From Squalus acanthias (taxonomy: Eukaryota): a DNA stretch of 64,000 nucleotides. Position 1 is the stretch's first letter. Every line of letters starts with the position of its first letter. The stretch spans positions 5,582,001 through 5,646,000 of the forward strand of contig JASTWF010000033.1 of assembly GCA_030390025.1 (NCBI GenBank). The letters run 5' to 3'. A model generated the notes under the pieces. It was given only the letters and a program-made list of their open reading frames with translations. It made no database searches and was not told the origin of the DNA. This document shows, in pieces, positions 5,416 through 61,400 of this stretch. The position numbers and the translations under genes are program-made.

Positions 5416-5571
5416 CTTTGTGTTTTTGTGGGTTCTCTCTCACCCTCCCTTTTTCCTGTTTTAAATTAATTTTACAGGGTATTAGAAGGGGAGGATTTGC
5501 AGACGGGAAACTCAAACCAAACATCACTTCAAGATCTGACAGAGTCACTCGATTCATCAGGACCTTTGAAC

Positions 5572-16655: not shown

Positions 16656-16723
16656 AATTTATTAAAAAAGACAATGCTGAAAACACTCAGCGGGTCAGGC
16701 AGCATCTGTGCAGAGAGAAACAG

Positions 16724-16760
16724 AGTTAACATTTCAGGTCCATGACCTTTCATCAGAACT
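16724..16760 (-). ncRNA. Minimal type I hammerhead ribozyme motif (Penelope-type)
   Basis: Minus strand reads AGUU-CUGAUGA-A-AGGUC-AUG-GACCU-GAAA-U-GUU-AACU: helix I AGUU/AACU, helix II AGGUC/GACCU, intact core boxes, GUU cleavage triplet, no intramolecular helix III. Confidence 0.7.
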
Positions 16761-17214
16761 GGACGATTCCAGATATTATCTGTATTAAAGCAATGATAGA
16801 GTCACAGAAAAGTGCTTTAGCATAAGGATAGAAAAAAGAGGAATCTCTGTGATTGGTTGGAGGGCCGGAGTGATTCAATGACAAAAGGGATGATGGTGCA
16901 AGGCGAATGGGACAATTAAAGAAACAGAAGATGGGTCTAGAGGAGGTGTAAATGGTTACAGCAGAATAACAAGGGGGAGGGGTAGTAGGGCACATGTGGC
17001 AGAGAAAGTTGGGTAGACCCCAGGTGTTTGGGCCAGCCCGCTGACCGTGTACCGGGATCGCCACCCCAAGCCCCAGCCCAAACCTCCTCCACTCCCAGTG
17101 GCTCTGGTGGAGCCATCCTCCATTACCAGCACATGTCGTCCGAGAAAACGGGAGCGGAGGTTATGATCTGAAGTTTTTAAACTTAGTGTTGAATCCGGCA
17201 GGCAATAAAATGCG

Positions 17215-17583
17215 GAATCATAGAATCTGGGAGCAGGAGTAGGCCATTCGGCCCGTCGAGCCTGCTCCACCATTCAACACGATCATGGCTGATCATTCAA
17301 ATCCAGTACCCTGTCCCTGCTTTAATCCCCCCAGTACACATATCCCAATAACCCCACATATTTAATCCCCCCCTAACACTAAGGGTCAATTTATCATAGC
17401 CAAATCAACCTAACCCGCACATTTTTGGACTGTGAGAGGAAACCGGAGCACCCGGAGGAAACCCACGCAGACACGGGGAGAATGTGCAAACTCCACACAG
17501 ACAGTCACACCGAGGTCAGATTCGAACCCGGGTCCCTGGCGCTGTGAGGCACCAGTGCTAACCACTACGCCACCGTGTTGCCC
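17215..17583 (-). mobile_element. tRNA-derived SINE (HE1/V-SINE type) with a CR1-derived 3' tail
   Basis: A box TGGCGTAGTGG, B box GGTTCGAATC, V-domain-like GTCTGCGTGGGTTTCCTCCGGGTGCTCCGGTTTCC; the tail matches the CR1 3' end at about 27075-27170. Confidence 0.88.
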
Positions 17584-18064
17584 GAAGGGGAGCAGATGTT
17601 AGTGGTGATGGAAGAGTGGACCAGGGTGTTGCGAGGGCCGGGGGGATGGGAGTGCAGGGGAAGATATGTTTGTTGTTGGCCTTCGCTGAACATGATGGAA
17701 ATGGCAGAGGATGATCCGTTGAATGTGAAGGCTGGTGCAGTGGAAGCTGAGGACAAGGGGTAATGGGAGCAATGCAGATTGACACGGTCGAGGGCCCTGG
17801 CATTCACAATGGAGGTGAATACTCGGCTGAGGAAATATGAAGACATTTCGGAAGCACTGGTGTGAAAGGTGGTATCGTCAGAACATATGCAACGGTGGCG
17901 GAGAAACTTTGAGAATAGAATATAGCCCTTCCAGGAAGCCGGGTGGGAGGAAGTCTACTCAAGATTCCTGTGGGAGTTGGTGGGATTATAGTAGATATTG
18001 GTGGATGGCCTAGACCCTGAAATGAAGATCGAGAAGTCGAGGAAGGGAATGGAAGATCACTGTG

Positions 18065-34595: not shown

Positions 34596-35447
34596 TTCAA
34601 AATCACAGACAACTCATTTCACAAACTCAGAAAGTTCATTTCAGTGACCTAGACAGCTCCATTCACAGATTAGGACAGATCCATTCACAGACTCAGACAG
34701 CTCCAATCACAGAAACAGACAGCAACATTCACAGACATGGAAAGCTGATGTCAAAAACCCAGACAGCTCATTTCAAAAACACAGAAAGTTAATTTCACAG
34801 ATCTAGACGTCTCCACTCACAGACACAGACAACTCATTTCAGAGACTCAGTCAGCTAAATACACAGACCCAGATAGATGCATTCACAGACCCAGACATCT
34901 CCATTCACAGATCCAGACAGCTCCATTCACAGACTCAGACAGCTCAATTCACAGACACAGAGAGCTCCATTCACAGACCCAGGCAGCTCCATTCACAGAC
35001 TCAGACAGCTCACTTCAAAGACTCAGGAAGCTCATGACACAGACCCAGACAGCTCCATTCACAGACTAAGACAGCTCCATTCACAGACCTAGACAGCTCC
35101 ATTCACAGACTCAGACAGCTCTATTCACAGACCCAGACAACTCCATTCTCAGACCCAGACAGCTAATTTCACTGACACAGACAGCACCAATCAACGACCC
35201 AGACAGTTCCATTCACAGACCCAGACAGCTCCATTGAAAGACACAGACAGTTCTATTCACAGAACCAGATAGATCATTTCACAGACCCAGACATCACCAT
35301 TCACAGACCAAGACAGATCGTTTCACAGACTCAGAAAGCTCATTTGACTGTCCCAGACAGCTCCATTCACAGACCCAGACAGCTCACTTTACAGACCTAG
35401 ACAGCTCCATTCACAGATCCAGACAGCTCCATTCACAGACCCAGACA

Positions 35448-38400
35448 GTCCAAAGATGTGCGGGTTAGGTTGATTTGGCTATGATAAATTGACCCTTAGT
35501 GTTAGGGGGATTAAATACGTGGGGTTACGGGGATAGGGTGGGATATGTGTCGGTGCAGGCTCGATGGGCCGAAATGGCATCTATCTGCATTAGGGGATTC
35601 TGTGATTCTGTGATTTCACAGACCCAAACAGTTCCGTTCACAGACATGGAAAGCTGATTTCAAAAACCAAGACAGCTCATTTCACAAACACAGAAAGTTC
35701 ATTTCACATACCCAGACATTTCCCTTCACAGACCCAGACCACTCATTTCACAGATTCAGACAGCTCAATTCACAGACACAGACATCTCCATTCACAGAAC
35801 GAGACAGCTCCATTCACAGACTCAGACAGCTTAATGCACAGACCCAGACATCTCCATTCACAGACCTAGACAACGCATTTCGCAGACTCCGAAAGCTCCA
35901 TTCACAGACCCATGCAGCTCCATTCACGGACCCAGACAGCACATTTCACAGACGGAGAAAGCATATTTCACTGACCCAGAGAGCTCCATTCACAGAGTCA
36001 GACAGCTCCATTTACAGACCCAGACAGCTCCATTGAAGATAGTTCTTCGACCTGAAACGTTAACTCTGTTTCTTCCTCCACGGATTGTGCCTGGCCCGAA
36101 GAGTTTTCCAGCGTTTTCTGTTGATAGATTCATTCACAGATTCAGACAGCTCCATTCACAGACTCAGAAAGTTCATTTCAGAGACCGAGATAGCACCATT
36201 CACAGACACAGACAGTTGCATTCACAGACCCAGACAGCACCATTCACAGACACAGACAGTTACATTCAGAGACCCAGACAGTTCTATTCACAGACCCAGA
36301 CAGCTCCATTCAGAGACTCAGACAGCTCCATTCACAGATCCAGACAGCTCCATTCACAAACACAGACAGTTCCATTCAGAAACTCAGACAGCTCCATTCA
36401 CAGACTCCGAAAGTTTATTTCACAGATCCAGACAGCTCCATTCACAGACCAAGACAGCTCCAATCATAGACCCAGACAGATCAATTCACAGACTCAGACA
36501 GCTCAATTCACAGACTCAGACAGCTCCATTCACAGAAACAGATAGCAACATTCACAGACATGGAAAGCTGATTTGAAATAAACAGACAGCTCATTTCACG
36601 AACAGATTCAGACAACTCATTTGACAGACCCAGACATCTCCATTCAGAGACTCAGAAAGCTCATTTCAGACACTCAGACAGCTCCATTCAAAGATCCAGA
36701 CGGCTGACTTCAAAGACTCTGAAAGCTCAGGTTACAGACCCAGACAGCTCCATTAACAACGTCAGACAGCTCCATTCACAGACCCAGACAACTCCATTTT
36801 CAGACCCAGACAGCACATTTCCCAGACCCAGACAGCTCATTCACAGACACAGACAGTTCCATTCACAGATCCAGACAGCTCCATTCACAGACCCAGACAG
36901 CTCCATTCCCATACCTAGACAGCTCATTCACCGACACAGATAGCTCCATTCACAGACCCAAACAGCACCATTCACAGACACAGACAGCTCCATTCACAGA
37001 TCAAGACAGCTCCATTCACAGAACCAGACAGCTCCATTCACAGACCCAGACAGCTCCATTCACAGACACAGACAGCTCCATTCACAGACCCAGACAGCTC
37101 CATTCACAGACCCAAACAGCTCCATTCACAGACACAGACAGCTCCGTTCACAGACCCAGACAGCTGCATTTAAAGACTCAGACAGCTTCAGTCACAGACC
37201 CAGACAACTCCATTCACAGACTCAGACAGCTCCATTCACAGACCAAGACAGCTCATTCACAGACCCAGACAGCTCCATTCACAGACTCAGACAGCTCAAT
37301 GCACAGACCCAGACATCTCCATTCACAGAACTAGACAACGCTTTTCGCAGACTCCGAAAGCTCCATTCACAGACCCATGCAACTCCATTCACAGACCCAG
37401 ACAACTCATTGCACAGACCCAGACAGCCCATTCACATACCCTGACATCACAATTCACAGAGGCACACAGCTCCATTCAGAGACTCAGACAGCTCCATTCA
37501 CAGACCCAGACAGCTCCATTCACAGACCCAGAAAGCTCCATTCACAGACCCAGCCAGCTCCATTCACAGACACAGACAGCTCCATTCACAGACTCAGACA
37601 GCTCCATTCACAGACCCAGACAGCTCTATTCACAGACCCAGAAAGCTCCATTCGCAGACCCAAACAGCTCCATTCACAGACCCAGACAGCTCCATTCACA
37701 GACCCAGACAGCCCATTCACAGACACAGATATCTCCATTCACAGACCCAAACAGCTCCATTCACAGACTCTGACAGCTCCATTCACAGACACAGACAGCT
37801 CCATTCACAGACCCAGACAGCTCCATTTACAGACCCAAACAGCTCCATTCACAGACCAAAACAGCTCCATTTAAAGACCCAGACAGCTCCATTTACAGAC
37901 ACAGACAGCTCCATTTACAGACCCAGACAGCTCCATTTACAGACTCTGACAGCTCAATTCACAGACAAAGACAGCTCCATTCACAGAAACAGACAGCTCC
38001 ATTCACAGACCCAGACAGCTCCATTTACAGACTCTGACAGCTCAATTCACAGACACAGACAGCTCCATTCACAGACCCAGACAGCTCCATTCACACACCC
38101 AGACAGCTCAATTTACACACTCAGACAGCTCCATTCAAAGACCCAGACAGCTCCATTCACAGACCCAGACAGCTCCATTTACAGACTCTGACAGCTCAAT
38201 TCACAGACACAGACAGCTCCATTCACAGACTCAGACAGCTCCATTCACAGACCCAGACAGCTCCATTTACAGACTCTGACAGCTCAATTCACAGACACAG
38301 ACAGCTCCATGCACAGAAACAGACAGCTCCATTCACAGACCAAGACAGCTCCATTTACAGACTCTGACAGCTCAATTCACAGACACAGACAGCTCCATTC

Positions 38401-41400
38401 AAAGACACAGACAGCTCATTTCATCGACCAAGACAGCTCCATTTACAGACTCTGACAGCTCAATTCACAGACACAGACAGCTCCATTCAAAGACACAGAC
38501 AGCTCCATTCACGGACCCAGACAGCACATTTCACAGACGCAGAAAGCATATTTCACTGAACCAGAGAGCTCCATTCACAGAGTCAGACAGCTCCATTTAC
38601 AGACCCAGACAGCTCCATTGAAGATAGTTCTTCGACCTGAAACGTTAACTCTGTTTCTCTCTCCACGGATTGTGCCTGGCCCGACGAGTTTTCCAGCGTT
38701 TTCTGTTGTTAGATTCATTCACAGATTCAGACAGCTCCATTCACAGACTCAGAAAGTTCATTTCAGAGACCGAGATAGCACCATTCACAGACACAGACAG
38801 TTGCATTCACAGACCCAGACAGTTCTATTCACAGACCCAGACAGCTCCATTCAGAGACTCAGACAGTTCCATTCACAAATCCAGACAGCTCCATTCACAA
38901 ACACAGACAGTTCCATTCAGAAACTCAGACAGCTCCATTCACAGACCAAGACAGCTTCATTCATAGACCCAGACAGATCAATTCACAGACTCAGACAGCT
39001 CAATTCACAGACTCAGACAGCTCCATTCACAGAAACAGATAGCAACATTCACAGACATGGAAAGCTGATTTGAAATAAACAGACAGCTCATTTCACGAAC
39101 AGATTCAGACAATTCATTTGACAGACCCAGACATCTCCATTCAGAGACTCAGAAAGCTCATTTCAGACACTCAGACATCTCCATTCAAAGATCCAGACGG
39201 CTGACTTCAAAGACTCTGAAAGCTCAGGTCACAGACCCAGACAGCTCCATTAACAACGTCAGACAGCTCTATTCACAGACCCATACAACTCCATTTTCAG
39301 ACCCAGACAGCACATTTCCCAGACCCAGACAGTTCAGTCACAGACACAGACAGTTCCATTCACAGATCCAGACAGCTCCATTCACAGACCCAGACAGCTC
39401 CATTCACATACCTAGACAGCTCATTCACCGACACAGATAGCTCCATTCACAGACCCAAACAGCACCATTTTGAGACACAGACAGCTCCATTCACAGATCC
39501 AGACAACTCCATTCACAGAACCAGACTGCTCCATTCACAGACCCAGACAGCTCCATTCACAGACCCAAACAGCTCCATTCACAGACACAGACAGCTCCAT
39601 TCACAGACCCAGACAGCTCCATTTAAAGACTCAGACAGCTTCAGTCACAGACCCAGACAACTCCATTCACAGACTCAGACAGCTCCATTCACAGACCAAG
39701 ACAGCTCATTCACAGACCCAGACAGCTCCATTCACAGACACAGACATCTCCATTCACAGAACGAGACAGGTCCATTCACAGACTCAGACAGCTCAATGCA
39801 CAGACCCAGACATCTCCATTCACAGAACTAGACAACGCTTTTCGCAGACTCCGAAAGCTCCATTCACAGACCCATGCAACTCCATTCACAGACCTAGACA
39901 ACTCATTGCACAGACCCAGACAGCCCATTCACATACCCTGACATCACAATTCACAGAGGCACACAGCTCCATTCAGAGACTCAGACAGCTCCATTCACAG
40001 ACCCAGACAGCTCCATTCACAGACCCAGAAAGCTCCATTCACAGACCCAGCCAGCTCCATTCACAGACCCAGACAGCTCCATTCACAGACTCAGACAGCT
40101 CCATTCACAGACCCAGACAGCTCTATTCACAGACCCAGAAAGCTCCATTCGCAGACCCAAACAGCTCCATTCACAGACCCAGACAGCTCCATTCACAGAC
40201 CCAGACAGCCCATTCACAGACACAGATATCTCCATTCACAGACCCAAACAGCTCCATTCACAGACTCTGACAGCTCCATTCACAGACACAGACAGCTCCA
40301 TTCACAGACCCAGACAGCTCCATTTACAGACCCAGACAGCTCCATTTACAGACCCAAACAGCTCCATTCACAGACCAAAACAGCTCCATTTAAAGAACCA
40401 GACAGCTCCATTTACAGACCCAGACAGCTCCATTTACAGACACAGACAGCTCCATTTACAGACCCAGACAGCTCCATTTACAGACTCTGACAGCTCAATT
40501 CACAGACAAAGACAGCTCCATTCACAGAAACAGACAGCTCCATTCACACACCCAGACAGCTCAATTTACACACTCAGACAGCTCCATTCAAAGACCCAGA
40601 CAGCTCCATTCACAGACCCAGACAGCTCCATTTACAGACTCTGACAGCTCAATTCACAGACACAGACAGCTCCATTCACAGACTCAGACAGCTCCATTCA
40701 CAGACCCAGACAGCTCCATTTACAGACTCTGACAGCTCAATTCACAGACACAGACAGCTCCATTCACAGAAACAGACAGCTCCATTCACAGACCAAGACA
40801 GCTCCATTTACAGACTCTGACAGCTCAATTCACAGACACAGACAGCTCCATTCACAGACCCAGACAGCTCCATTCACAGACACAGACAGCTCATTTCATC
40901 GACCAAGACAGCTCCATTTACAGACTCTGACAGCTCCATTCACAGACCCAGTCAGCTTCATTCACGGACCCAGGCAGCTGATTTCACAGACCCAGACAGC
41001 ACAATTCACAGACGGAGAAAGCATATTTCACTGACCCAGAGAGCTCCATTCACGGAGTCAGACAGCTCCATTTACAGACCCAGACAGCTCCATTGAAGAT
41101 AGTTCTTCGACCTGAAACGTTAACTCTGTTTCTCTCTCCACGGATTGTGCCTGGCCCGCTGAGTTTTCCAACGTTTTCTGTTGTTAGATTCATTCACAGA
41201 TTCAGACAGCTCCATTCACAGACTCAGAAAGTTCATTTCAGAGACCTAGATAGCACCATTCACAGACACAGACAGTTCCATTCACAGACTCAGACAGCTC
41301 AATTCGCAGACCCAGACAACTCCATTCACAAACCCAGACAGCTCCATTTACAGACATGGAAAGCTGATTTGAAAATAACAGACAGCTCATTTCACGAACA

Positions 41401-44400
41401 GATTCAGACAATTCATTCACAGACCCAGACAGCTCCATTCACAGACACAGACAGCTCATTCACAGACTCAGACAGCTCCATTCACAGACCCAAACAGCAC
41501 CATTCGCAGACTCAGACAGCTCCATTCACTGACCCAGACAGCTCCATTCACAAACCCAGACAGCTCCATTCACAGACCCAGACAGCTCCATTCACAGACG
41601 CAGACAGGTCTATTCACAGACTCAGACAGCTCCATTCACAGACCCAGACAGCTCGATTTACCGACCCAGACAACTCCATTCACAGACTCAGACAGCTCCA
41701 TTCACAGACCCAGACAGCTCCATTCACAGACCCAGACAACTCCATTCACAAACCCAGGCAGCTCCATTCAAAGATCCAGAAAGCTCATTTCGCAGACTCA
41801 GACAGCTCCATTTAGAGACCCAGACAGCTCCATTCACAGACTCAGACAGCTCCATTTAGAGACTCAGACAGCTCCATTCACAGACACAGACAGCTCCATT
41901 TAGAGACTCAGACAGCTCAATTCACAGACACAGAGAGCTCCATTCACAGACCCAGGCAGCTCCATTCACAGACTCAGACAGCTCACTTCAAAGACTCAGA
42001 AAGCTCATGACACAGACCCAGACAGCTCCATTCACAGACTCAGACAGCTCCATTCACAGACCTAGACAGCTCCATTCACAGACTCAGACAGCTCTATTCA
42101 CAGACCCAGACAACTCCATTCTCAGACCCAGACAGCTAATTTCACTGACACAGACAGCACCAATCAACGACCCAGACAGTTCCATTCACAGACCCAGACA
42201 GCTCCATTGAAAGACACAGACAGTTCTATTCACAGAACCAGATAGATCATTTCACAGACCCAGACATCACCATTCACAGACCAAGACAGATCGTTTCACA
42301 GACTCAGAAAGCTCATTTGACTGTCCCAGACAGCTCCATTCACAGACCCAGACAGCTCACTTCACAGACCTAGACAGCTCCATTCACAGATCCAGACAGC
42401 TCCATTCACAGACCCAGACAGTCCAAAGATGTGCGGGTTAGGTTGATTTGGCTATGATAAATTGACCCTTAGTGTTAGGGGGATTAAATACGTGGGGTTA
42501 CGGGGATAGGGTGGGATATGTGTCGGTGCAGGCTCGATGGGCCGAAATGGCATCTATCTGCATTAGGGGATTCTGTGATTCTGTGATTTCACAGACCCAA
42601 ACAGTTCCGTTCACAGACATGGAAAGCTGATTTCAAAAACCAAGACAGCTCATTTCACAAACACAGAAAGTTCATTTCACATACCCAGACATTTCCCTTC
42701 ACAGACCCAGACCACTCATTTCACAGATTCAGACAGCTCAATTCACAGACACAGACATCTCCATTCACAGAACGAGACAGCTCCATTCACAGACTCAGAC
42801 AGCTTAATGCACAGACCCAGACATCTCCATTCACAGACCTAGACAACGCATTTCGCAGACTCCGAAAGCTCCATTCACAGACCCATGCAGCTCCATTCAC
42901 AGACCCAGACAACTCATTGCACAGACCCAGACAGCCCATTCACATACCCTGACATCACAATTCACAGAGGCACACAGCTCCATTCAGAGACTCAGACAGC
43001 TCCATTCACAGACCCAGACAGCTCCATTCACAGACCCAGAAAGCTCCATTCACAGACCCAGCCAGCTCCATTCACAGACCCAGACAGCTCCATTCACAGA
43101 CTCAGACAGCTCCATTCACAAACCCAGACAGCTCTATTCACAGACCCAGAAAGCTCCATTCACAGACCCAAACAGCTCCATTCACAGACCCAGACAGCTC
43201 CATTCACAGACCCAGACAGCCCATTCACAGACACAGATATCTCCATTCACAGACCCAAACAGCTCCATTCACAGACTCTGACAGCTCCATTTAAAGACCC
43301 AGACAGCTCCATTTACAGACACAGACAGCTCCATTTACAGTCCCAGACAGCTCCATTTACAGACTCTGACAGCTCAATTCACAGACACAGACAGCTCCAT
43401 TCACAGAAACAGACAGCTCCATTCACAGACCAAGACAGCTCCATTTACAGACTCTGACAGCTCAATTCACAGACACAGACAGCTCCATTCACAGACCCAG
43501 ACAGCTCCATTCACAGACACAGACAGCTCATTTCATCGACCAAGACAGCTCCATTTACAGACTCTGACAGCTCCATTCACAGACCCAGTCAGCTTCATTC
43601 ATGGACCCAGGCAGCTGATTTCACAGACCCAGAGGGCACAATTCACAGACGGAGAAAGCATATTTCACTGACCCAGAGAGCTCCATTCACGGAGTCAGAC
43701 AGCTCCATTTACAGACCCAGACAGCTCCATTGAAGATAGTTCTTCGACCTGAAACGTTAACTCTGTTTCTCTCTCCACGGATTGTGCCTGGCCCGCTGAG
43801 TTTTCCAACGTTTTCTGTTGTTAGATTCATTCACAGATTCAGACAGCTCCATTCACAGACTCAGAAAGTTCATTTCAGAGACCTAGATAGCACCATTCAC
43901 AGACACAGACAGTTCCATTCACAGACTCAGACAGCTCAATTCGCAGACCCAGACAACTCCATTCACAGACCCAGACAGCTCCATTCACAGACCCAGACAG
44001 CTCATTCACCGACACAGATAGCTCCATTCACAGACCCAAACAGCACCATTCTCAGACTCAGACAGCTCCATTCACAGATCCAGACAGCTCATTCACAGAC
44101 ACAGATAACTCCATTCACAGACCCAAACAGCACCATTCACAGACTCAGACAGCTCCATTTACAGACCCAGACAGCTGCATTCACAGACCCAGACAGCTCC
44201 ATTCACAGACCCAGACAGCTCCATTCACAGATTCAGACAGCTCCATTCACAGACACAGACAGCTCATTTCATCGACCAAGACAGCTCCATTTACAGACTC
44301 TGACAGCTCCATTCACAGACCCAGTCAGCTTCATTCACGGACCCAGGCAGCTGATTTCACAGACCCAGACAGCACATTTCACAGACGGAGAAAGCATATT

Positions 44401-47400
44401 TCACTGACCCAGAGAGCTCCATTCACGGAGTCAGACAGCTCCATTTACAGACCCAGACAGCTCCATTGAAGATAGTTCTTCGACCTGAAACGTTAACTCT
44501 GTTTCTCTCTCCACGGATTGTGCCTGGCCCGCTGAGTTTTCCAACGTTTTCTGTTGTTAGATTCATTCACAGATTCAGACAGCTCCATTCACAGACTCAG
44601 AAAGTTCATTTCAGAGACCTAGATAGCACCATTCACAGACACAGACAGTTCCATTCACAGACTCAGACAGCTCAATTCGCAGACCCAGACAACTCCATTC
44701 ACAAACCCAGACAGCTCCATTTACAGACATGGAAAGCTGATTTGAAAATAACAGACAGCTCATTTCACGAACAGATTCAGACAATTCATTCACAGACCCA
44801 GACAGCTCCATTCACAGACACAGACAGCTCATTCACAGACTCAGACAGCTCCATTCACAGACCCAAACAGCACCATTCGCAGACTCAGACAGCTCCATTC
44901 ACTGACCCAGACAGCTCCATTCACAGACCCAGACAGCTCCATTCACAGACCCAGACAGCTCCATTCACAGACGCAGACAGGTCTATTCACAGACTCAGAC
45001 AGCTCCATTCACAGACCCAGACAGCTCGATTTACCGACCCAGACAACTCCATTCACAGACTCAGACAGCTCCATTCACAGACCCAGACAGCTCCATTCAC
45101 AGACCCAGACAACTCCATTCACAAACCCAGGCAGCTCCATTCAAAGATCCAGAAAGCTCATTTCGCAGACTCAGACAGCTCCATTTAGAGACCCAGACAG
45201 CTCCATTCACAGACTCAGACAGCTCCATTTAGAGACTCAGACAGCTCCATTCACAGACACAGACAGCTCCATTTAGAGACTCAGACAGCTCAATTCACAG
45301 ACACAGAGAGCTCCATTCACAGACCCAGGCAGCTCCATTCACAGACTCAGACAGCTCACTTCAAAGACTCAGAAAGCTCATGACACAGACCCAGACAGCT
45401 CCATTCACAGACTCAGACAGCTCCATTCACAGACCTAGACAGCTCCATTCACAGACTCAGACAGCTCTATTCACAGACCCAGACAACTCCATTCTCAGAC
45501 CCAGACAGCTAATTTCACTGACACAGACAGCACCAATCAACGACCCAGACAGTTCCATTCACAGACCCAGACAGCTCCATTGAAAGACACAGACAGTTCT
45601 ATTCACAGAACCAGATAGATCATTTCACAGACCCAGACATCACCATTCACAGACCAAGACAGATCGTTTCACAGACTCAGAAAGCTCATTTGACTGTCCC
45701 AGACAGCTCCATTCACAGACCCAGACAGCTCACTTCACAGACCTAGACAGCTCCATTCACAGATCCAGACAGCTCCATTCACAGACCCAGACAGTCCAAA
45801 GATGTGCGGGTTAGGTTGATTTGGCTATGATAAATTGACCCTTAGTGTTAGGGGGATTAAATACGTGGGGTTACGGGGATAGGGTGGGATATGTGTCGGT
45901 GCAGGCTCGATGGGCCGAAATGGCATCTATCTGCATTAGGGGATTCTGTGATTCTGTGATTTCACAGACCCAAACAGTTCCGTTCACAGACATGGAAAGC
46001 TGATTTCAAAAACCAAGACAGCTCATTTCACAAACACAGAAAGTTCATTTCACATACCCAGACATTTCCCTTCACAGACCCAGACCACTCATTTCACAGA
46101 TTCAGACAGCTCAATTCACAGACACAGACATCTCCATTCACAGAACGAGACAGCTCCATTCACAGACTCAGACAGCTTAATGCACAGACCCAGACATCTC
46201 CATTCACAGACCTAGACAACGCATTTCGCAGACTCCGAAAGCTCCATTCACAGACCCATGCAGCTCCATTCACAGACCCAGACAACTCATTGCACAGACC
46301 CAGACAGCCCATTCACATACCCTGACATCACAATTCACAGAGGCACACAGCTCCATTCAGAGACTCAGACAGCTCCATTCACAGACCCAGACAGCTCCAT
46401 TCACAGACCCAGAAAGCTCCATTCACAGACCCAGCCAGCTCCATTCACAGACCCAGACAGCTCCATTCACAGACTCAGACAGCTCCATTCACAGACCCAG
46501 ACAGCTCTATTCACAGACCCAGAAAGCTCCATTCACAGACCCAAACAGCTCCATTCACAGACCCAGACAGCTCCATTCACAGACCCAGACAGCCCATTCA
46601 CAGACACAGATATCTCCATTCACAGACCCAAACAGCTCCATTCACAGACTCTGACAGCTCCATTTAAAGACCCAGACAGCTCCATTTACAGACACAGACA
46701 GCTCCATTTACAGTCCCAGACAGCTCCATTTACAGACTCTGACAGCTCAATTCACAGACAAAGACAGCTCCATTCACAGAAACAGACAGCTCCATTCACA
46801 GACCCAGACAGCTCCATTTACAGACTCTGACAGCTCAATTCACAGACACAGACAGCTCCGTTCACAGACCCAGACAGCTCCATTCACAGACCCAGACAGC
46901 TCAATTTACACACTCAGACAGCTCCATTCAAAGACCCAGAAAGCTCCATTCACAGACCCAGACAGCTCCATTTACAGACTCTGACAGCTCAATTCACAGA
47001 CACAGACAGCTCCATTCACAGACCCAGACAGCTCCATTTACAGACTCTGACAGCTCAATTCACAGACACAGACAGCTCCATTCAAAGACACAGACAGCTC
47101 ATTTCATCGACCAAGACAGCTCCATTTACAGACTCTGACAGCTCAAATCACAGACACAGACAGCTCCATTCAAAGACACAGACAGCTCCATTCACGGACC
47201 CAGACAGCACATTTCACAGACGTAGAAAGCATATTTCACTGACCCAGAGAGCTCCATTCACAGACCCAGGCAGCTCCATTTACAGACTCAGACAGCTCAC
47301 TTCAAAGACTCAGAAAGCTCATGACACAGACCCAGACAGCTCCATTCACAGACTCAGACAGCTCCATTCACAGACCTAGACAGCTCCATTCACAGACTCA

Positions 47401-47900
47401 GACAGCTCTATTCACAGACCCAGACAACTCCATTCTCAGACCCAGACAGCTAATTTCACTGACACAGACAGCACCTATCAACGACCCAGACAGTTCCATT
47501 CACAGACCCAGACAGCTCCATTGAAAGACACAGACAGTTCTATTCACAGAACCAGATAGATCATTTCACAGACCCAGACATCACCATTCACAGACCAAGA
47601 CAGATCGTTTCACAGACTCAGAAAGCTCATTTGACTGTCCCAGACAGCTCCATTCACAGACCCAGACAGCTCACTTTACAGACCTAGACAGCTCCATTCA
47701 CAGATCCAGACAGCTCCATTCACAGACCCAGACAGTCCAAAGATGTGCGGGTTAGGTTGATTTGGCTATGATAAATTGACCCTTAGTGTTAGGGGGATTA
47801 AATACGTGGGGTTACGGGGATAGGGTGGGATATGTGTCGGTGCAGGCTCGATGGGCCGAAATGGCATCTATCTGCATTAGGGGATTCTGTGATTCTGTGA
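35448..47900 (+). mobile_element. Four copies of a 165-bp SINE 3' half embedded in the satellite (about 35448, 42421, 45794, 47735)
   Basis: GTCCAAAGATGTGCGGGTTAGGTTGATTTGGCTATGATAAATTGACCCTTAGTGTTAGGGGGATTAAAT is the reverse complement of the SINE body at about 17360-17430; each copy ends in (GATTCTGT)2. Confidence 0.9.
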
Positions 47901-50900
47901 TTTCACAGACCCAAACAGTTCCGTTCACAGACATGGAAAGCTGATTTCAAAAACCAAGACAGCTCATTTCACAAACACAGAAAGTTCATTTCACATACCC
48001 AGACATTTCCCTTCACAGACCCAGACCACTCATTTCACAGATTCAGACAGCTCAATTCACAGACACAGATATCTCCATTCACAGACCCAAACAGCTCCAT
48101 TCACAGACTCTGACAGCTCCATTTAAAGACCCAGACAGCTCCATTTACAGACACAGACAGCTCCATTTACAGTCCCAGACAGCTCCATTTACAGACTCTG
48201 ACAGCTCAATTCACAGACAAAGACAGCTCCATTCACAGAAACAGACAGCTCCATTCACAGACCCAGACAGCTCCATTTACAGACTCTGACAGCTCAATTC
48301 ACAGACACAGACAGCTCCGTTCACAGACCCAGACAGCTCCATTCACAGACCCAGACAGCTCAATTTACACACTCAGACAGCTCCATTCAAAGACCCAGAA
48401 AGCTCCATTCACAGACCCAGACAGCTCCATTTACAGACTCTGACAGCTCAATTCACAGACACAGACAGCTCCATTCACAGACCCAGACAGCTCCATTTAC
48501 AGACTCTGACAGCTCAATTCACAGACACAGACAGCTCCATTCAAAGACACAGACAGCTCATTTCATCGACCAAGACAGCTCCATTTACAGACTCTGACAG
48601 CTCAAATCACAGACACAGACAGCTCCATTCAAAGACACAGACAGCTCCATTCACGGACCCAGACAGCACATTTCACAGACGTAGAAAGCATATTTCACTG
48701 ACCCAGAGAGCTCCATTCACAGACCCAGGCAGCTCCATTTACAGACTCAGACAGCTCACTTCAAAGACTCAGAAAGCTCATGACACAGACCCAGACAGCT
48801 CCATTCACAGACTCAGACAGCTCCATTCACAGACCTAGACAGCTCCATTCACAGACTCAGACAGCTCTATTCACAGACCCAGACAACTCCATTCTCAGAC
48901 CCAGACAGCTAATTTCACTGACACAGACAGCACCTATCAACGACCCAGACAGTTCCATTCACAGACCCAGACAGCTCCATTGAAAGACACAGACAGTTCT
49001 ATTCACAGAACCAGATAGATCATTTCACAGACCCAGACATCACCATTCACAGACCAAGACAGATCGTTTCACAGACTCAGAAAGCTCATTTGACTGTCCC
49101 AGACAGCTCCATTCACAGACCCAGACAGCTCACTTTACAGACCTAGACAGCTCCATTCACAGATCCAGACAGCTCCATTCACGGACCCAGACAGCACATT
49201 TCACAGACGGAGAAAGCATATTTCACTGACCCAGAGAGCTCCATTCACAGAGTCAGACAGCTCCATTTACAGACCCAGACAGCTCCATTGAAGATAGTTC
49301 TTCGACCTGAAACGTTAACTCTGTTTCTTCCTCCACGGATTGTGCCTGGCCCGAAGAGTTTTCCAGCGTTTTCTGTTGATAGATTCATTCACAGATTCAG
49401 ACAGCTCCATTCACAGACTCAGAAAGTTCATTTCAGAGACCGAGATAGCACCATTCACAGACACAGACAGTTGCATTCACAGACCCAGACAGTTCTATTC
49501 ACAGACCCAGACAGCTCCATTCAGAGACTCAGACAGCTCCATTCACAGATCCAGACAGCTCCATTCACAAACACAGACAGTTCCATTCAGAAACTCAGAC
49601 AGCTCCATTCACAGACCAAGACAGCTTCATTCATAGACCCAGACAGATCAATTCACAGACTCAGACAGCTCAATTCACAGACTCAGACAGCTCCATTCAC
49701 AGAAACAGATAGCAACATTCACAGACATGGAAAGCTGATTTGAAATAAACAGACAGCTCATTTCACGAACAGATTCAGACAACTCATTTGACAGACCCAG
49801 ACATCTCCATTCAGAGACTCAGAAAGCTCATTTCAGACACTCAGACAGCTCCATTCAAAGATCCAGACGGCTGACTTCAAAGACTCTGAAAGCTCAGGTC
49901 ACAGACCCAGACAGCTCCATTAACAACGTCAGACAGCTCTATTCACAGACCCAGACAACTCCATTTTCAGACCCAGACAGCACATTTCCCAGACCCAGAC
50001 AGCTCATTCACAGACACAGACAGTTCCATTCACAGATCCAGACAGCTCCATTCACAGACCCAGACAGCTCCATTCACATACCTAGACAGCTCATTCACCG
50101 ACACAGATAGCTCCATTCACAGACCCAAACAGCACCATTCACAGACACAGACAGCTCCATTCACAGATCCAGACAGCTCCATTCACAGAACCAGACAGCT
50201 CCATTCACAGACCCAGACAGCTCCATTCACAGACACAGACAGCTCCATTCACAGACCCAGACAGCTCCATTCACAGACCCAAACAGCTCCATTCACAGAC
50301 ACAGACAGCTCCGTTCACAGACCCAGACAGCTGCATTTAAAGACTCAGACAGCTTCAGTCACAGACCCAGACAACTCCATTCACAGACTCAGACAGCTCC
50401 ATTCACAGACCAAGACAGCTCATTCACAGACCCAGACAGCTCCATTCACAGACACAGACATCTCCATTCACAGAACGAGACAGGTCCATTCACAGACTCA
50501 GACAGCTCAATGCACAGACCCAGACATCTCCATTCACAGAACTAGACAACGCTTTTCGCAGACTCCGAAAGCTCCATTCACAGACCCATGCAACTCCATT
50601 CACAGACCCAGACAACTCATTGCACAGACCCAGACAGCCCATTCACATACCCTGACATCACAATTCACAGAGGCACACAGCTCCATTCAGAGACTCAGAC
50701 AGCTCCATTCACAGACCCAGACAGCTCCATTCACAGACCCAGAAAGCTCCATTCACAGACCCAGCCAGCTCCATTCACAGACCCAGACAGCTCCATTCAC
50801 AGACTCAGACAGCTCCATTCACAGACCCAGACAGCTCTATTCACAGACCCAGAAAGCTCCATTCGCAGACCCAAACAGCTCCATTCACAGACCCAGACAG

Positions 50901-53900
50901 CTCCATTCACAGACCCAGACAGCCCATTCACAGACACAGATATCTCCATTCACAGACCCAAACAGCTCCATTCACAGACTCTGACAGCTCCATTCACAGA
51001 CAGAGACAGCTCCATTCACAGACCCAGACAGCTCCATTTACAGACCCAGACAGCTCCATTTACAGACCCAAACAGCTCCATTCACAGACCAAAACAGCTC
51101 CATTTAAAGACCCAGACAGCTCCATTTACAGACACAGACAGCTCCATTTACAGACCCAGACAGCTCCATTTACAGACTCTGACAGCTCAATTCACAGACA
51201 AAGACAGCTCCATTCACAGAAACAGACAGCTCCATTCACAGACCCAGACAGCTCCATTTACAGACTCTGACAGCTCAATTCACAGACACAGACAGCTCCA
51301 TTCACAGACCCAGACAGCTCCATTCACACACCCAGACAGCTCAATTTACACACTCAGACAGCTCCATTCAAAGACCCAGACAGCTCCATTCACAGACCCA
51401 GACAGCTCCATTTACAGACTCTGACAGCTCAATTCACAGACACAGACAGCTCCATTCACAGACTCAGACAGCTCCATTCACAGACCCAGACAGCTCCATT
51501 TACAGACTCTGACAGCTCAATTCACAGACACAGACAGCTCCATTCACAGAAAGAGACAGCTCCATTCACAGACCAAGACAGCTCCATTTACAGACTCTGA
51601 CAGCTCAATTCACAGACACAGACAGCTCCATTCAAAGACACAGACAGCTCATTTCATCGACCAAGACAGCTCCATTTACAGACTCTGACAGCTCAATTCA
51701 CAGACACAGACAGCTCCATTCAAAGACACAGACAGCTCCATTCACGGACCCAGACAGCACATTTCACAGACGCAGAAAGCATATTTCACTGAACCAGAGA
51801 GCTCCATTCACAGAGTCAGACAGCTCCATTTACAGACCCAGACAGCTCCATTGAAGATAGTTCTTCGACCTGAAACGTTAACTCTGTTTCTCTCTCCACG
51901 GATTGTGCCTGGCCCGACGAGTTTTCCAGCGTTTTCTGTTGTTAGATTCATTCACAGATTCAGACAGCTCCATTCACAGACTCAGAAAGTTCATTTGAGA
52001 CCTAGATAGCACCATTCACAGACACAGACAGTTGCATTCACAGACCCAGACAGTTCTATTCACAGACCCAGACAGCTCCATTCAGAGACTCAGACAGCTC
52101 CATTCACAGATCCAGACAGCTCCATTCACAAACACAGACAGTTCCATTCAGAAACTCAGACAGCTCCATTCACAGACCAAGACAGCTTCATTCATAGACC
52201 CAGACAGATCAATTCACAGACTCAGACAGCTCAATTCACAGACTCAGACAGCTCCATTCACAGAAACAGATAGCAACATTCACAGACATGGAAAGCTGAT
52301 TTGAAATAAACAGACAGCTCATTTCACGAACAGATTCAGACAATTCATTTGACAGACCCAGACATCTCCATTCAGAGACTCAGAAAGCTCATTTCAGACA
52401 CTCAGACATCTCCATTCAAAGATCCAGACGGCTGACTTCAAAGACTCTGAAAGCTCAGGTCACAGACCCAGACAGCTCCATTAACAACGTCAGACAGCTC
52501 TATTCACAGACCCATACAACTCCATTTTCAGACCCAGACAGCACATTTCCCAGACCCAGACAGTTCAGTCACAGACACAGACAGTTCCATTCACAGATCC
52601 AGACAGCTCCATTCACAGACCCAGACAGCTCCATTCACATACCTAGACAGCTCATTCACCGACACAGATAGCTCCATTCACAGACCCAAACAGCACCATT
52701 CACAGACACAGACAGCTCCATTCACAGATCCAGACAACTCCATTCACAGAACCAGACTGCTCCATTCACAGACCCAGACAGCTCCATTCACAGACACAGA
52801 CAGCTCCATTCACAGACCCAGACAGCTCCATTCACAGACCCAAACAGCTCCATTCACAGACACAGACAGCTCCATTCACAGACCCAGACAGCTCCATTTA
52901 AAGACTCAGACAGCTTCAGTCACAGACCCAGACAACTCCATTCACAGACTCAGACAGCTCCATTCACAGACCAAGACAGCTCATTCACAGACCCAGACAG
53001 CTCCATTCACAGACACAGACAGCTCCATTCACAGACAAAGACAGCTCATTTACAGACACAGACAGCTCCATTTACAGACCCAGACAGCTCCATTTGCAGA
53101 CACTGACAAATCAATTCACAGACACAGACAGCTACATTCAGAGACCCAGACAGCTCCATTTACAGACTCCGGCAGCTCCATTCACAGACCCAAACAGCTC
53201 ATTTCACAGACCCAGACAGCTCCATTTACAGACCCAGACAGCTCCATTTACGATAGGTCTTCGACCTGAAACGTTAACTCTGTTTCTCTCTCCACGGATT
53301 GTGCCTGGCCTGCAGAGTTTTCCAGCGTTTTCTGTTGTTAGATTCATTCACAGATTCAGACAGCTCCATTCACAGACTCAGAAAGTTCATTTCAGAGACC
53401 TAGATAAAACAATTCACAGACACAGACAGTTCCATTCAGAGACCCAGACAGCTCCATTCACAGACTCCGAAATTTCATTTCACAGATCCAGACAGCTCCA
53501 TTCACAGACCCAGACAGATCCATTCACAGACTCAGACAGCTCAATTCACAGACCCAGACAACTCCATTCACAAACCCAGACAGCTCCATTTACAGACATG
53601 GAAAGCTGATTTGAAAATAACAGACAGCTCATTTCACGAAGAGATTCAGACAATTCATTTGACAGACCAAGACATCTCCATTCAGAGACTCAGTAAGCTC
53701 ATTTCAGACACTCAGACAGCTCCATTCAAAGATCCAGACGGCTGACTTCAAAGACTCTGAAAGCTCAGGTCACAGACCCAGACAGCTCCATTAACAACGT
53801 CAGACAGCTCTATTCACAGACCCAGACAACTCCATTTTCAGACCCAGACAGCACATTTCCCAGACCCAGACAGCTCATTCACAGACACAGACAGTTCCAT

Positions 53901-55420
53901 TCATAGATCCAGAGAGCTCCATTTACAGACTCAGACAGCTCCATTCACAGACCCAGACAGCTCCATTCACAGACCCAGACAGCTCCATTCACAGACCCAG
54001 ACAGCTCCATTCACAGACCCAGACAGCTCCATTCACAGACTCAGAGAGCTCCATTCACAGACTCAGACAGCTCCATTCACAGACCCAGACAGCTCCATTT
54101 ACAAACTCTGACAGCTCAATTCACAGACACAGACAGCTCCATTCACAGACTCAGACAGCTTCATTCACAGACCCAGGCAGCTGATTTCACAGATCCAGAC
54201 AGCACATTTCACAGATCCAGACCTCTCCATTCAAAGACACAGACAGCTCATTTCATCGACCAAGACAGCTCGATTTTCAGAACCAGACAGCTCCATTGAC
54301 GAGAGTTCTTCGACCTGAAAGGTGAACTCTGTTTCTCTCTCCACGGATTGTGCCTGGCCTGCAGAGTTTTCCAGCGTTTTCTGTTGTTAGATTCATTCAC
54401 AGTTTCAGACAGCTACATTCACAGACTCAGAAAGTTCATTTCAGAGACCTAGATAGCACCATTCACAGACACAGACAGTTCCATTCACAGACACAGACAG
54501 TTCCATTCACAGACTCCGAAAGTTCATTTCACAGATCCAGACAGCTCCATTCACAGACCCAGACAGATCCATTCACAGACTCAGACAGCTCAATTCACAG
54601 ACCCAGACAACTCCATTCACAAACCCAGACAGCTCCATTTACAGACATGGAAAGCTGATTTGAAAATAACAGACAGCTCATTTCACGAAGAGATTCAGAC
54701 AATTCATTTGACAGACCAAGACATCTGCATTCAGAGACTCAGTAAGCTCATTTCAGACACTCAGACAGCTCCATTCAAAGATCCAGACGGCTGACTTCAA
54801 AGACTCTGAAAGCTCAGGTCACAGACCCAGACAGCTCCATTAACAACGTCAGACAGCTCTATTCACAGACCCAGACAACTCCATTTTCAGACCCAGACAG
54901 CACATTTCCCAGACCCAGACAGCTCATTCACAGACACAGACAGTTCCATTCATAGATCCAGAGAGCTCCATTTACAGACTCAGACAGCTCCATTCACAGA
55001 CCCAGACAGCTCCATTCACAGACCCAGACAGCTCCATTCACAGACCCAGACAGCTCCATTCACAGACCCAGACAGCTCCATTCACAGACCCAGACAGCTC
55101 CATTCACAGACCCAGACAGCTCCATTCACAGACAAAGACAGCTCCATTCACAGACTCAGACAGCTCCATTCACAGACCCAGACAGCTCCATTTACAGACT
55201 CTGACAGCTGATTTCACAGACCCAGACAGCACATTTCACAGATCCAGACCTCTCCATTCAAAGACACAGACAGCTCATTTCATCGACCAAGACAGCTCCA
55301 TTTTCAGAACCAGACAGCTCCATTGACGAGAGTTCTTCGACCTGAAAGGTGAACTCTGTTTCTCTCTCCACGGATTGTGCCTGGCCTGCAGAGTTTTCCA
55401 GCGTTTTCTGTTGTTAGATT
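36033..55420 (+). mobile_element. Ten copies of a 100-bp Penelope-terminus fragment embedded in the satellite (about 36033, 38618, 41093, 43730, 44466, 49288, 51851, 53250, 54296, 55323)
   Basis: GACCTGAAACGTTAACTCTGTTTCTCTCTCCACGGATTGTGCCTGGCCCGCTGAGTTTTCC matches the reverse complement of 16675-16740. Confidence 0.88.
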
Positions 55421-58400
55421 CATTCACAGTTTCAGACAGCTACAATCACAGACTCAGAAAGTTCATTTCAGAGACCTAGATAGCACCATTCACAGACACA
55501 GACAGTTCCATTCACAGACACAGACAGTCCATTCACAGACTCCGAAAGTTCATTTAACAGATCAAGACAGCTCCATTCACAGACACAGACAGATCCATTC
55601 ACAGACTCAGACAGCTCCATTCACAGACCCAGACAACTCCATTCACAAACCCAGACATCTCCATTTACAGACCCAGACAGCTGCATTTATAGACTCAGAC
55701 AGCTCAATTCACAGACACAGACAGCTGCATTCACAACCCAGACCACTCCATTTACAGACTCTCACAGCTCCATTCACAGACCCAGACAGCTCCATTCACA
55801 GACACAGATAGCTCCATTCACAGACACAGACAGCTCCATTCACAGACCCAGACAGCTCATTCACAGACACAGACAGTTCCATTCACAGATCCAGACAGCT
55901 CCATTCACAGACACAGACAGCTCCATTCAAAGACCCAAACAGCTTCATTAACAGACGCAGACAACTCCATTTACAGACTCTGACAGCTCAATTCACAGAC
56001 ACAGACATCTCCATTCAGAGACCCAGACAGCTCCATTTACAGACTCTCGCAGCTCCATTCACAGACCCAGAGAGCTCTTATTACAGACACAGACAGCTCC
56101 ATTCACAGACCCAGACAGCTCCATTTACAGACTCAGACAGCTCCATTCTCAGACCCAGACAGCACCATTACCAGACTCTGACAGCTCAATTCACAGACAC
56201 AGACAGCTCCATTCAGAGACCCAGACAGCTCCACTTACAGACTCACGCAGCTCCATTCACAGACTCTCGCAGCTCCATTCACAGACCCAGACAGCTCTGT
56301 TTACAGACTCAGACAGCTCCATTCACAGACCCAGACAGCTCCATCCACAGACCCAGACAGCTCCATTCACAGACCCAGACAGCTCCATTCACAGAACTAG
56401 ACATCTCCATTCACAGACTCAGACAGCTCCATTCACAGACACAGATAGCTCCATTCACAGACCCTGACATCTGCATTCACAGACTCAGACAGCTCCATTC
56501 ACAGACCCAGACAGCTCCATTTACAGACACTGACAACTCCATTCACAGAAACAGACAGCTCCATTTACAGACTCTTGCAGCTCCATTCACAGACATAGAC
56601 AGCTCCATTCACAGACCTAGACAGCTTCTTTCACAGACCCAGACAGCTCCATTCACAGACCGTGTCAACTCCATTCACAGACACTGGCAGCTCCATTCAC
56701 AGACTCAGACAGCTCCATTCACAGACCCAAACAGCTCCATTTACAGACCCAGACAGCTCCATTCACAGACCCAGACAGCTCCATTCACAGACCGAAACAG
56801 CTCCATTTACAGACCCAGACAGCTCCATTTACAGATTCAGAAAGTTCATTTCAGAGACCTAGATAGCACCATTCTCAGACACAGACAGTTCCATTCAGAG
56901 ACTCAGACAGCTCCATTCGCAGACTCCGAAAGTTTATTTCACAGATCCAGACAGCTCCATTCACGGACACAGACAGATACATTCACAGACCCAGACCCCT
57001 CCATTCAGAGACCCAGACAGCTCCATTCACAGACCCAGACAGTTCCATTCACAGACTCAGAGAGCTCCATTCACAGACCCAGAGAGCTCCATTCACAGAC
57101 CCAGACAGCTCCATTCACAGACACAGACAGCTCAATTCAAAGACTCAGTCAGCTCCATTCACAGACCCAGACAGCTCCATTCACAGACCCAGACAGTTCC
57201 ATTCACAGACTCAGAGAGCTCCATTCACAGACCCAGAGAGCTCCATTCACAGACCCAGATAGCTCCATTCACAGACTCAGACTGCTCCATTCACAGACTC
57301 AGACAGCTCCATTAACAACGTCAGACAGCTCTATTCACAGACCCAGACAACTCCATTTTCAGACCCAGAAAGCACATTTCAGAGATCCAGACAGCTCATT
57401 CACAGACACAGACAGTTCCATTCACAGATCCAGACAGCTCCATTTACAGACTCAGACAGCTCCATTCACAGACCCAGACAGCTCCATCCACAGACCCAGA
57501 CAGCTCATTCACAGACACAGATAGCTCCATTCACAGACACAGACAGTTCCATTCACAGATCCAGACAGCTCCATTCACAGAACCAGACAGCTCCATTCAC
57601 AGACCCAGACAGCTCATTCACAGACACAGATAGCTCCATTCACAGACACAGAGAGCTCCATTCACAGACCCAGACAGCTCATTCACAGACACAGACAGTT
57701 CCATTCACAGATCCAGACAGCTCCATTCACAGACACAGACAGCTCCATTCAAAGACCCAAACAGCTCCATTAACAGACGCAGACAACTCCATTTACAGAC
57801 TCTGACAGCTCAATTCACAGACACAGACATCTCCATTCAGAGACCCAGACAGCTCCATTTACAGACTCTCGCAGCTCCATTCACAGACCCAGACAGCTCT
57901 TATTACAGACACAGACAGCTCCATTCACAGACCCAGACAGCTCCATTCACAGACTCAGACAGCTCCATTCTCAGACCCAGACAGCTCCATTACCAGACTC
58001 TGACAGCTCAATTCACAGACACAGACAGCTCCATTCAGAGACCCAGACAGCTCCACTTACACACTCACGCAGCTCCATTCACAGACTCTCGCAGCTCCAT
58101 TCACAGACCCAGACAGCTCTATTTACAGACTCAGACAGCTCCATTCACAGACACAGACAGCTCCATCCACAGACCCAGACAGCTCCATTCACAGACCCAG
58201 ACAGCTCCATTCACAGAACCAGACATCTCCATTTACAGACCCAGACAGCTCCATTTACAGACTCAGACAGCTCCATTCACAGACCCAGACAGCTCCATTC
58301 ACAGACCGAAACAGCTCCATTTACAGACCCAGACAGCTCCATTTACAGACTCAGAAAGTTCATTTCAGAGACCTAGATAGCACCATTCTCAGATACAGAC

Positions 58401-61400
58401 AGTTCCATTCAGAGACTCCGAAAGTTTGTTTCACAGATCCAGACAGCTCCATTCACGGACCCAGACAGATCCATTCACAGACCCAGACCCCTCCATTCAG
58501 AGACCCAGACAGCTCCATTCACAGACCCAGACAGTTCCATTCACAGACTCAGAGAGCTCCATTCACAGACCCAGAGAGCTCCATTCACAGACCCAGACAG
58601 CTCCATTCACAGACACAGACAGCTCCATTCAAAGACTCAGTCAGCTCCATTCACAGACCCAGACAGTTCCATTCAGAGACCCAGACAGCTCCATTCACAG
58701 ACCCAGATAGCTCCATTCACAGACTCAGACAGCTCCTTTCACAGACCCAGACAGATCCATTCACAGACTCAGGCAGCAACATTCACAGACATGGAAAGCT
58801 AATTTGAAAAAAACAGACAGCTCATTTCACGAACAGATTCAGACAATTCATTTGACAGACCCAGACATCTCCATTCAGAAACTCAAAAAGCTCATTTCAG
58901 ACACTCAGACAGCTCCATTCAAAGAGCCAGAAGGCTGACTTCAAAGACTCTGAAAGCTCAGGTCACGGACCCAGACAGCTCCATTAACAACGTCAGACAG
59001 CTCTATTCACAGACCCAGACAACTCCATTTTCAGACCCAGAAAGCACATTTCAGAGATCCAGACAGCTCATTCACAGACACAGACAGTTCCATTCACAGA
59101 TCCAGACAGCTCCATTTACAGACTCAGACAGCTCCATTCACAGACCCAGACAGCTCCATCCACAGACCCAGACAGCTCATTCACAGACACAGATAGCTCC
59201 ATTCACAGACACAGACAGTTCCATTCACAGATCCAGACAGCTCCATTCACAGAACCAGACAGCTCCATTCACAGACCCAGACAGCTCATTCACAGACACA
59301 GATAGCTCCATTCACAGACACAGACAGCTCCATTCACAGACCCAGACAGCTCATTCACAGACACAGACAGTTCCATTCACAGATCCAGACAGCTCCATTC
59401 ACAGACACAGACAGCTCCATTCAAAGACCCAAACAGCTCCATTAACAGACGCAGACAACTCCATTTACAGACTCTGACAGCTCAATTCACAGACACAGAC
59501 ATCTCCATTCAGAGACCCAGACAGCTCCATTTACAGACTCTCGCAGCTCCATTCACAGACCCAGACAGCTCTTATTACAGACACAGACAGCTCCATTCAC
59601 AGACCCAGACAGCTCCATTCACAGACTCAGACAGCTCCATTCTCAGACCCAGACAGCTCCATTACCAGACTCTGACAGCTCAATTCACAGACACAGACAG
59701 CTCCATTCAGAGACCCAGACAGCTCCACTGACAGACTCACGCAGCTCCATTCACAGACTCTCGCAGCTGCATTCACAGACCCAGACAGCTCTATTTACAG
59801 ACTCAGACAGCTCCATTCACAGACCCAGACAGCTCCATTCACAGACCCAGACAGCTCCATTCACAGACCCAGACAGCTCCATTCACAGAACCAGACATCT
59901 CCATTCACAGACTCAGACAGCTCCATTCACAGACACAGATAGCTCCATTCACAGACCCAGACATCTGCATTCACAGACTCAGACAGCTCCATTCACAGAC
60001 CCAGACAGCTCCATTTACAGACCCAGACAACTCCATTCACAGACACAGACAGCTCCATTTACAGACTCTGGCAGCTCCATTCACAGACATAGACAGCTCC
60101 GTTCACAGACCTAGAGAGCTTCTTTTACAGACCCAGACAGCTCCATTCGCAGACCTAGTCAACTCCATTCACAGACACTGGCAGCTTCATTTACAGACTC
60201 AGACAGCTCCATTTACAGACACAGACAGCTCCATTCACAGACTCAAACAGCTCCATTGACAGACTCAAACAGCTCCATTTACAGACCCAGACAGCTCCAT
60301 TTACAGACTCAGACAGCTCCATTCACAGACCCAGACAGCTCCATTCACAGACCGAAACAGCTCCATTTACAGACCCAGACAGCTACATTTACAGACTCAG
60401 AAAGTTCATTTCAGAGACCTAGATAGCACCATTCTCAGACACAGACAGTTCCATTCAGAGACTCCGAAAGTTTATTTCACAGATCCAGACAGCTCCATTC
60501 ACAGACACAGACAGATCCATTCACAGACCCAGACCCCTCCATTCACAGACCCAGACAGCTCCATTCACAGACCCAGACAGCTCCATTCACAGACTCAGAC
60601 ATCTCCATTCACAGACCCAGACAGCTCCATTCACAGACCCAGACAGCTCCATTCACAGACTCAGACAGCTCCATTCACAGACACAGACAGTTCCATTCAC
60701 AGATCCAGACAGCTCCATTCACAGAAACAGACAGCTCCATTCACAGACCCAGACAGCTCATTCACAGACACAGATAGCTCCATTCACAGACTCAGACAGC
60801 TCCATTCACAGACCCAGACAGCTCATTCACAGACACAGACAGTTCCATTCACAGATCCAGACAGCTCCATTCACAGACACAGACAGCTCCAGTCAAAGAC
60901 CCAAACAGCTACATTAACAGACGCAGACAGCTCCATTTACAGACTCTGACAGCTCAATTCACAGACACAGACATCTCCATTCAGAGACCCAGACAGCTCC
61001 ATTTACAGACTCTCGCAGCTCCATTCACAGACCCAGACAGCTCTTATTACAGACACAGACAGCTCCATTCACAGGCCCAGACAGCTCCATTCACAGACTC
61101 AGACAGCTCCATTCTCAGACCCAGACAGCTCCATTACCAGACTCTGACAGCTCAATTCACACGCACAGACAGCTCCATTCAGAGACCCAGACAGCTCCAC
61201 TGACAGACTCTCGCAGCTCCATTCACAGACTCTCGCAGCTCCATTCACAGTCCCAGACAGCTCTATTTACAGACTCAGAGAGCTCCATTCACAGACCCAG
61301 ACAGCTCCATCCACAGACCCAGACAGCTCCATTCACAGACCCAGACAGCTCCATTCACAGAACCAGACATCTCCATTCACAGACTCAGACAGCTCCATTC

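Follow-up and report, generated by a model that had tools for sequence, protein, structure and literature searches.

Ten copies of a hammerhead-bearing retroelement end lie on one strand of a 22-bp satellite array, and very probably descend from a single 5'-truncated Penelope-like insertion in that satellite, which was afterwards multiplied passively to leave inactive passengers. The observation is real but ordinary.

Ten inserts in a 22-bp satellite array

The window (i.e., the whole stretch of 64,000 nucleotides that was analysed) was vertebrate-like overall. It contained decayed reverse transcriptases of LINE type, a C2H2 zinc-finger exon with seven matched fingers (5470-6189, +), a stop-free frame of 315 codons encoding a rhodopsin-family receptor (11177-12124, -; Pfam 7tm_1, E 2e-20), and, besides the array considered here, a second satellite of 18-bp units (29747-32315; 143 copies, 87% matches). 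The 22-bp satellite starts at 34,606, reaches the end of the window and continues past it. Stop-free frames of up to 570 codons cross it, likely as a by-product of the 22-bp sequence.

A scan for satellite-likeness identified 14 non-satellite stretches within the array: ten hammerhead inserts and four copies of an unrelated 167-bp fragment. The ten 100-bp inserts on the forward strand that had been reported in a preliminary description were recovered, each now resolved into an insert proper of 96 bp and a 4-bp duplication, with CATT on both sides. They could be aligned without gaps and fell into five haplotypes (A-E); their spacing was irregular, from 736 to 4822 bp, in agreement with the 0.7-4.8 kb given previously. 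The features of the array are as follows, 'position 3' being nucleotide 3 of the hammerhead:

34606..64000, + strand: satellite array, 22-bp unit, about 1,330 units, 76% matches
36035..36130, + strand: insert, haplotype A, position 3 at 36033, CATT at 36031-36034 and 36131-36134
38620..38715, + strand: insert, haplotype B, position 3 at 38618
41095..41190, + strand: insert, haplotype C, position 3 at 41093
43732..43827, + strand: insert, haplotype C, position 3 at 43730
44468..44563, + strand: insert, haplotype C, position 3 at 44466, within a 3,373-bp duplication
49290..49385, + strand: insert, haplotype A, position 3 at 49288
51853..51948, + strand: insert, haplotype B, position 3 at 51851
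53249..53344, + strand: insert, haplotype D, position 3 at 53247, helix II intact, G5 lost
54298..54393, + strand: insert, haplotype E, position 3 at 54296, cleavage position G, no palindrome, alternative hairpin
55325..55420, + strand: insert, haplotype E, position 3 at 55323
56804..56881, + strand: empty site with no insert, a single CATT and, downstream, the rare satellite variant that also follows the inserts
about 58318, 60364 and 61879: other related empty sites, single CATT, no insert
35449..35615, 42422-42588, 45795-45961 and 47736-47902, + strand: four copies, 100% identical, of the 167-bp non-satellite fragment

Both junctions were identical in all ten copies. The 5' break lay between U4 and G5, that is, inside the hammerhead, such that satellite supplies nucleotide 3 and all that lies 5' of it. 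The inserts displayed both 5' truncation and target duplication, as expected of a Penelope-like terminus. The empty sites were found through the rare satellite variant downstream of the inserts; searching with this marker returned 14 matches, comprising nine filled sites, four empty sites and the start of the array, while the copy at 51851 escaped through a 2-bp deletion inside its marker. The empty sites are relatives of the target rather than its exact ancestors.

Several independent, site-specific Penelope insertions at one satellite position, rather than duplication of one insertion, would be a highly improbable origin. The duplicated CATT does contain ATT, which is favoured by the anole enzyme (PMC11167929), and the 3' junction is spanned at 85% identity by one contig from the second organism label (see below). 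However, the 5' truncation point was common to all ten copies, to the base; most family contigs lacked tail letters common to the ten (e.g., 41146T and 41147G); and downstream, all ten were followed by one rare variant of the satellite. The identical junctions, the co-duplicated flanks and the four related empty sites with one CATT therefore argue for a single origin. Thus, the ten copies of the terminus noted previously are all present, but as five haplotypes with one pair of junctions and not as independent elements.

The source element and its relatives

The inserts were 78-81% identical over 86-90 nt to 16,666-16,755 on the reverse strand (E 1e-14 to 1e-18), which bears out the homology to 16675-16756 (-) described before. 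This region belongs to a relic:

16660..18056, - strand: decayed Penelope-like element, with an RT-thumb-like remnant at 17607-18056, a SINE-like insert, then the 3' region
16724..16760, - strand: minimal type I hammerhead of the relic, C3 at 16756, helix I of 4 bp, helix II of 5 bp, no loop III

A 59-residue piece of the decayed frame had 52 protein relatives at E<=0.001. When 12 of these were searched with Pfam, GIY-YIG was matched in two and RVT_1 in two, all below the Pfam cut-off; in the sequences, RT motifs precede a nuclease at the C terminus. Three relatives bearing RT or GIY-YIG aligned back to 17,607-18,056 (E 1e-15 to 1e-17). The decayed frame itself produced no Pfam match, nor any match among 175 candidates in a word-index protein search. 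An RT with a C-terminal GIY-YIG is the Penelope-like layout, according to PMC4209133 and bioRxiv 10.1101/2021.04.23.441226, and it is with the 3' terminus of such an element that the inserts share homology. Judged by sequence, they are the hammerhead-bearing 3' end of a Penelope-like element; the original identification as a Penelope terminus is upheld by the protein relatives of the relic and by its motif at 16,756, which passed a minimal hammerhead descriptor. A SINE-like element at 17215-17575 (-), with a tRNA-like head by eye, splits the relic just before the end of the frame. The 167-bp fragment of the array was 93% similar to 17,341-17,429 (-); we take it to be the 3' fragment of a SINE-like element.

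The source motif, represented by the 16,756 copy and the family contigs, shares with metazoan Penelope minimal type I hammerheads, as these are described in PMC4209133, the core boxes, an extra nucleotide after A9, the 4-bp helix I, the lack of a loop III and the palindromic 15-16 segment. It is a known minimal hammerhead. In the same account, most genomic motifs are solo remnants of truncated elements. The array copies differ in that C3 and the helix I 5' strand are missing and satellite surrounds them; the first helix II pair is A-U where G-C is usual. In the PAc element of Anolis (PMC11167929), insertions likewise end in a hammerhead and a short 3' stretch, and the target contains ATT. It likely belongs to a different clade, as the relic's relatives have a zinc-finger-like linker (by eye), and the array, unlike PAc, encodes no protein.

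Public sequencing runs provided family members outside the array. In four of four runs, under two organism labels, loose ends upstream of the insert core retained C3 and an intact strand of helix I (39-260 such contigs per run). Helix II position 10.3 was G in 85-98% of run depth, and T in nine of the ten array copies. Since the runs show an intact helix I strand, C3 and G10.3, the defects of the array copies represent the derived state. The family was very abundant in run contigs, both from DNA and from one RNA-like run whose RNA label is a guess. One contig of run X1 (86 nt, 7 differences) spanned the 3' junction, as did one of run X11, under the second organism label (107 nt, 16 differences); the latter, a single contig, hints that the insertion is old. 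In run X17 (RNA label guessed), the ratio of satellite to element end was far lower than in DNA run X1, contig depth being no measure of expression, and no X17 piece crossed a junction among the pieces listed (32 of 20,656); these proportions did not enter the argument. X11, whose RNA label is also guessed, had DNA-like proportions. The 22-bp satellite gathered depth in runs of the second label too, and is possibly common to related species; 20 public runs under several organism labels had words in common with this stretch.

State of the hammerhead in the array copies

The hammerhead core consensus comprises C3-U4-G5-A6-N-G8-A9, G12-A13-A14, A15-U16 and H17, with three stems (PMC7151607). Neither the C3 to A9 box nor its U3-A8 alternative was present in the array: U3 was combined with G8 in all ten copies, and G5 was also lost in one. 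The U previously read at position 3 was confirmed in every copy, with the refinement that this T is the satellite's own base and no part of the insert. Helix I, whose 5' strand had correctly been said to be replaced by satellite, formed 0 bp in register in ten of ten copies, and at most 1 bp with a shift of 1-3 nt, compared with 4 bp in the 16,756 copy. Array-array dimers similarly gave a helix I of 0 bp in 15 of 15 haplotype pairings; because the 5' strand must be linked directly to position 3, no dimer of array copies can supply it.

Helix II was mismatched in most copies, as had been noted: a U-C mismatch with a pair probability of about 0 affected nine of ten (haplotypes A, B, C and E). 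It was perfect only in haplotype D, the copy near 53250 for which a perfect helix II and a broken first box had been recorded, and where G5 is indeed replaced by T. In folding, the first catalytic box of haplotypes A-C was pulled into a competing hairpin. The GAAA box was retained by all ten copies and GAAAC-GTT-AACT, with the palindrome and GUU triplet, by the eight reported to have it; position 17 was G in two. Every copy had a lesion beyond the lost C3 and helix I strand.

The minimal hammerhead descriptor, a check proposed at the outset, was passed by none of the ten copies, even with U3-G8 allowed; applied to both strands of the 64 kb, it returned two matches, the 16,756 motif and a loose match at 17,827. 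An Rfam scan of the whole window gave three chance-level matches and no hammerhead at E<=5, the 16,756 copy included, and was thus uninformative for minimal motifs. The minimum-energy fold of the 16,756 copy was also not a hammerhead; folding energies discriminate poorly. Natural core variants near C3 retain low activity (PMC3088659), and a search of the literature on the effect of C3U found one paper, which gave no rates. Since energies discriminate poorly and U3 alone would not prove inactivity, the argument for inactivity rests on the missing helix I; all ten copies are predicted to be unable to self-cleave.

The two haplotype E copies (54296-54330 and 55323-55357) folded into a long hairpin, as the preliminary description had proposed, and their three private substitutions all add pairs to this one hairpin. 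Among 20,000 random triple substitutions, 0.45% (RNA) or 0.26% (DNA) folded as well, in a post hoc comparison of one of five haplotypes. These changes fit quasi-palindrome template switching as outlined in PMC3820800 and PMC8604942; since each arm carries substitutions, a single such event would not suffice. Two other configurations were considered and rejected. A chimeric trans-enzyme, in which the satellite 5' arm guides the core to antisense satellite RNA, would find U at 16.1 in 0 of 644 matching satellite sites. Pairing of the mutated helix II strand with the helix I 3' strand, in a shifted register, would preserve none of the catalytic boxes.

It had been suggested that the array might form a system for processing satellite RNA. 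As a retrozyme-like or newt-satellite-2-like satellite with copies cleaving in cis as dimers, it is barely credible. Ten hammerhead-derived motifs do occur in tandem on one strand of DNA, probably of Penelope origin, in the manner of non-LTR retrozymes, newt satellite 2 and schistosome Sm-alpha, and retrozymes reportedly arise from Penelope repeats and are present in a cartilaginous fish (bioRxiv 10.64898/2026.07.22.740005). However, those systems carry a complete ribozyme in each unit of a few hundred bases and yield unit-length or circular RNA (PMC7229834, PMC6155905 and the same preprint), whereas the unit here is 22 bp and ribozyme-free: none of about 1,330 units holds an intact ribozyme, and the ten incomplete motifs are spaced irregularly, against regular retrozyme units of 150-450 bp (PMC7229834). 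A complete hammerhead in at least two consecutive units, the mark of a retrozyme, was absent from the array. The lack of helix I in cis and in array dimers, together with the failure of all ten copies under the descriptor, argues against self-processing.

It is also very unlikely that the dead copies serve as substrates in trans, with intact Penelope hammerheads, perhaps together with the element's protein, cutting array transcripts at eight of ten sites. The more specific version, in which pairing through the common palindromic helix III and through helix I (4 bp each) directs the cut and releases pieces of 0.7-4.8 kb, is equally so. Eight of ten copies retain the palindrome, the triplet and the helix I 3' strand, which is all that a trans substrate needs and counts against the copies being passengers; a 4-bp helix I can be drawn between such a copy and the one at 16,756; family members abound in DNA and in the RNA-like run; and the hammerhead of the anole element depends on its protein for cleavage (PMC11167929). 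Nevertheless, only 8 base pairs would be intermolecular, and the heterodimer reached -3.4 kcal/mol, where the best dimer fold scored -18.7 (for the intact homodimer, -6.6 against -20.7). The site is lost in two of ten copies, even intact minimal hammerheads are weak at dimer cleavage (PMC4209133), and for the anole element no RNA ends were found at the cut site (PMC11167929). The caveat first entered, that the copies may be dead passengers, is favoured by the lost C3, the missing helix I and the additional lesions.

Spread of the inserts and its meaning

Within the array, 47 segments of at least 300 bp are duplicated at 96-100% identity, which gives it a patchwork structure, and flanks were duplicated along with the insert, up to 2,626 bp at 99.8%. 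The 167-bp fragment has no ribozyme and was also multiplied, to four copies, by the same duplications, and thus provides an internal control for passive amplification. Distinctive satellite 20-mers had a median copy number of 4 and a 90th percentile of 9 (n=807), comparable to the insert 20-mers (median 5, maximum 10). Passive amplification is concluded from these two observations, and a copy number that matches passive duplication again speaks against a processing system.

Substitutions among the ten copies told a similar story, within the low power of five haplotypes: 6 of 32 sites varied in the hammerhead part and 7 of 65 in the tail. By class, variable sites numbered 2/11 in the core, 2/16 in the helices, 2/5 at free positions and 7/65 in the tail (constrained vs. 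tail, Fisher p = 0.73); adjacent satellite had 3/33 and 3/48 (6/81 together). Therefore, in this array, the core was as variable as the rest and bore no sign of conservation relative to tail or flanks, contrary to what a processing system had implied, weak as a test of five haplotypes is. Post hoc subsets showed opposite trends. The seven copies of haplotypes A, B and C had 0/32 variable sites in the hammerhead part against 6/65 in the tail (p = 0.17; flanks 6/152), while D and E had 5/32 against 0/65 (p = 0.003), an excess in the hammerhead part; this fits a mosaic produced by exchange between copies.

The sequence of events would be as follows. Target-primed reverse transcription of Penelope RNA would have started at a CATT site and been aborted 96 nt in, just inside the hammerhead, with a 1-nt microhomology at U4, leaving the ribozyme dead on arrival. 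The insert was then probably multiplied as blocks of the array underwent unequal exchange and tandem duplication, after which the copies would have drifted just as the satellite around them did, with a degree of gene conversion among them. Unequal crossing-over and gene conversion are standard causes of such spread; PMC5615363 describes transposon fragments dispersed in satellites by these processes and by higher-order repeats. The mechanism here is of the same type, and there are likewise mosaic kilobase duplications at 96-100% identity that carry two different inserts, the passenger in this case being a ribozyme stump. In the main texts searched, which included few subscription papers, amplification of a Penelope end in a satellite of cartilaginous fish was not found.

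Cleavage in trans, if it did occur, would link satellite RNA to the activity of a transposon through a natural hammerhead reaction acting in trans, which would be a rarity. Where tandem DNA contains hammerhead-like motifs, helix I needs to be checked, and the inserts are useful as a marker for ordering the duplications of the array. On this reading the array clearly illustrates how satellite turnover can spread the stump of a retroelement, and is of little wider importance.
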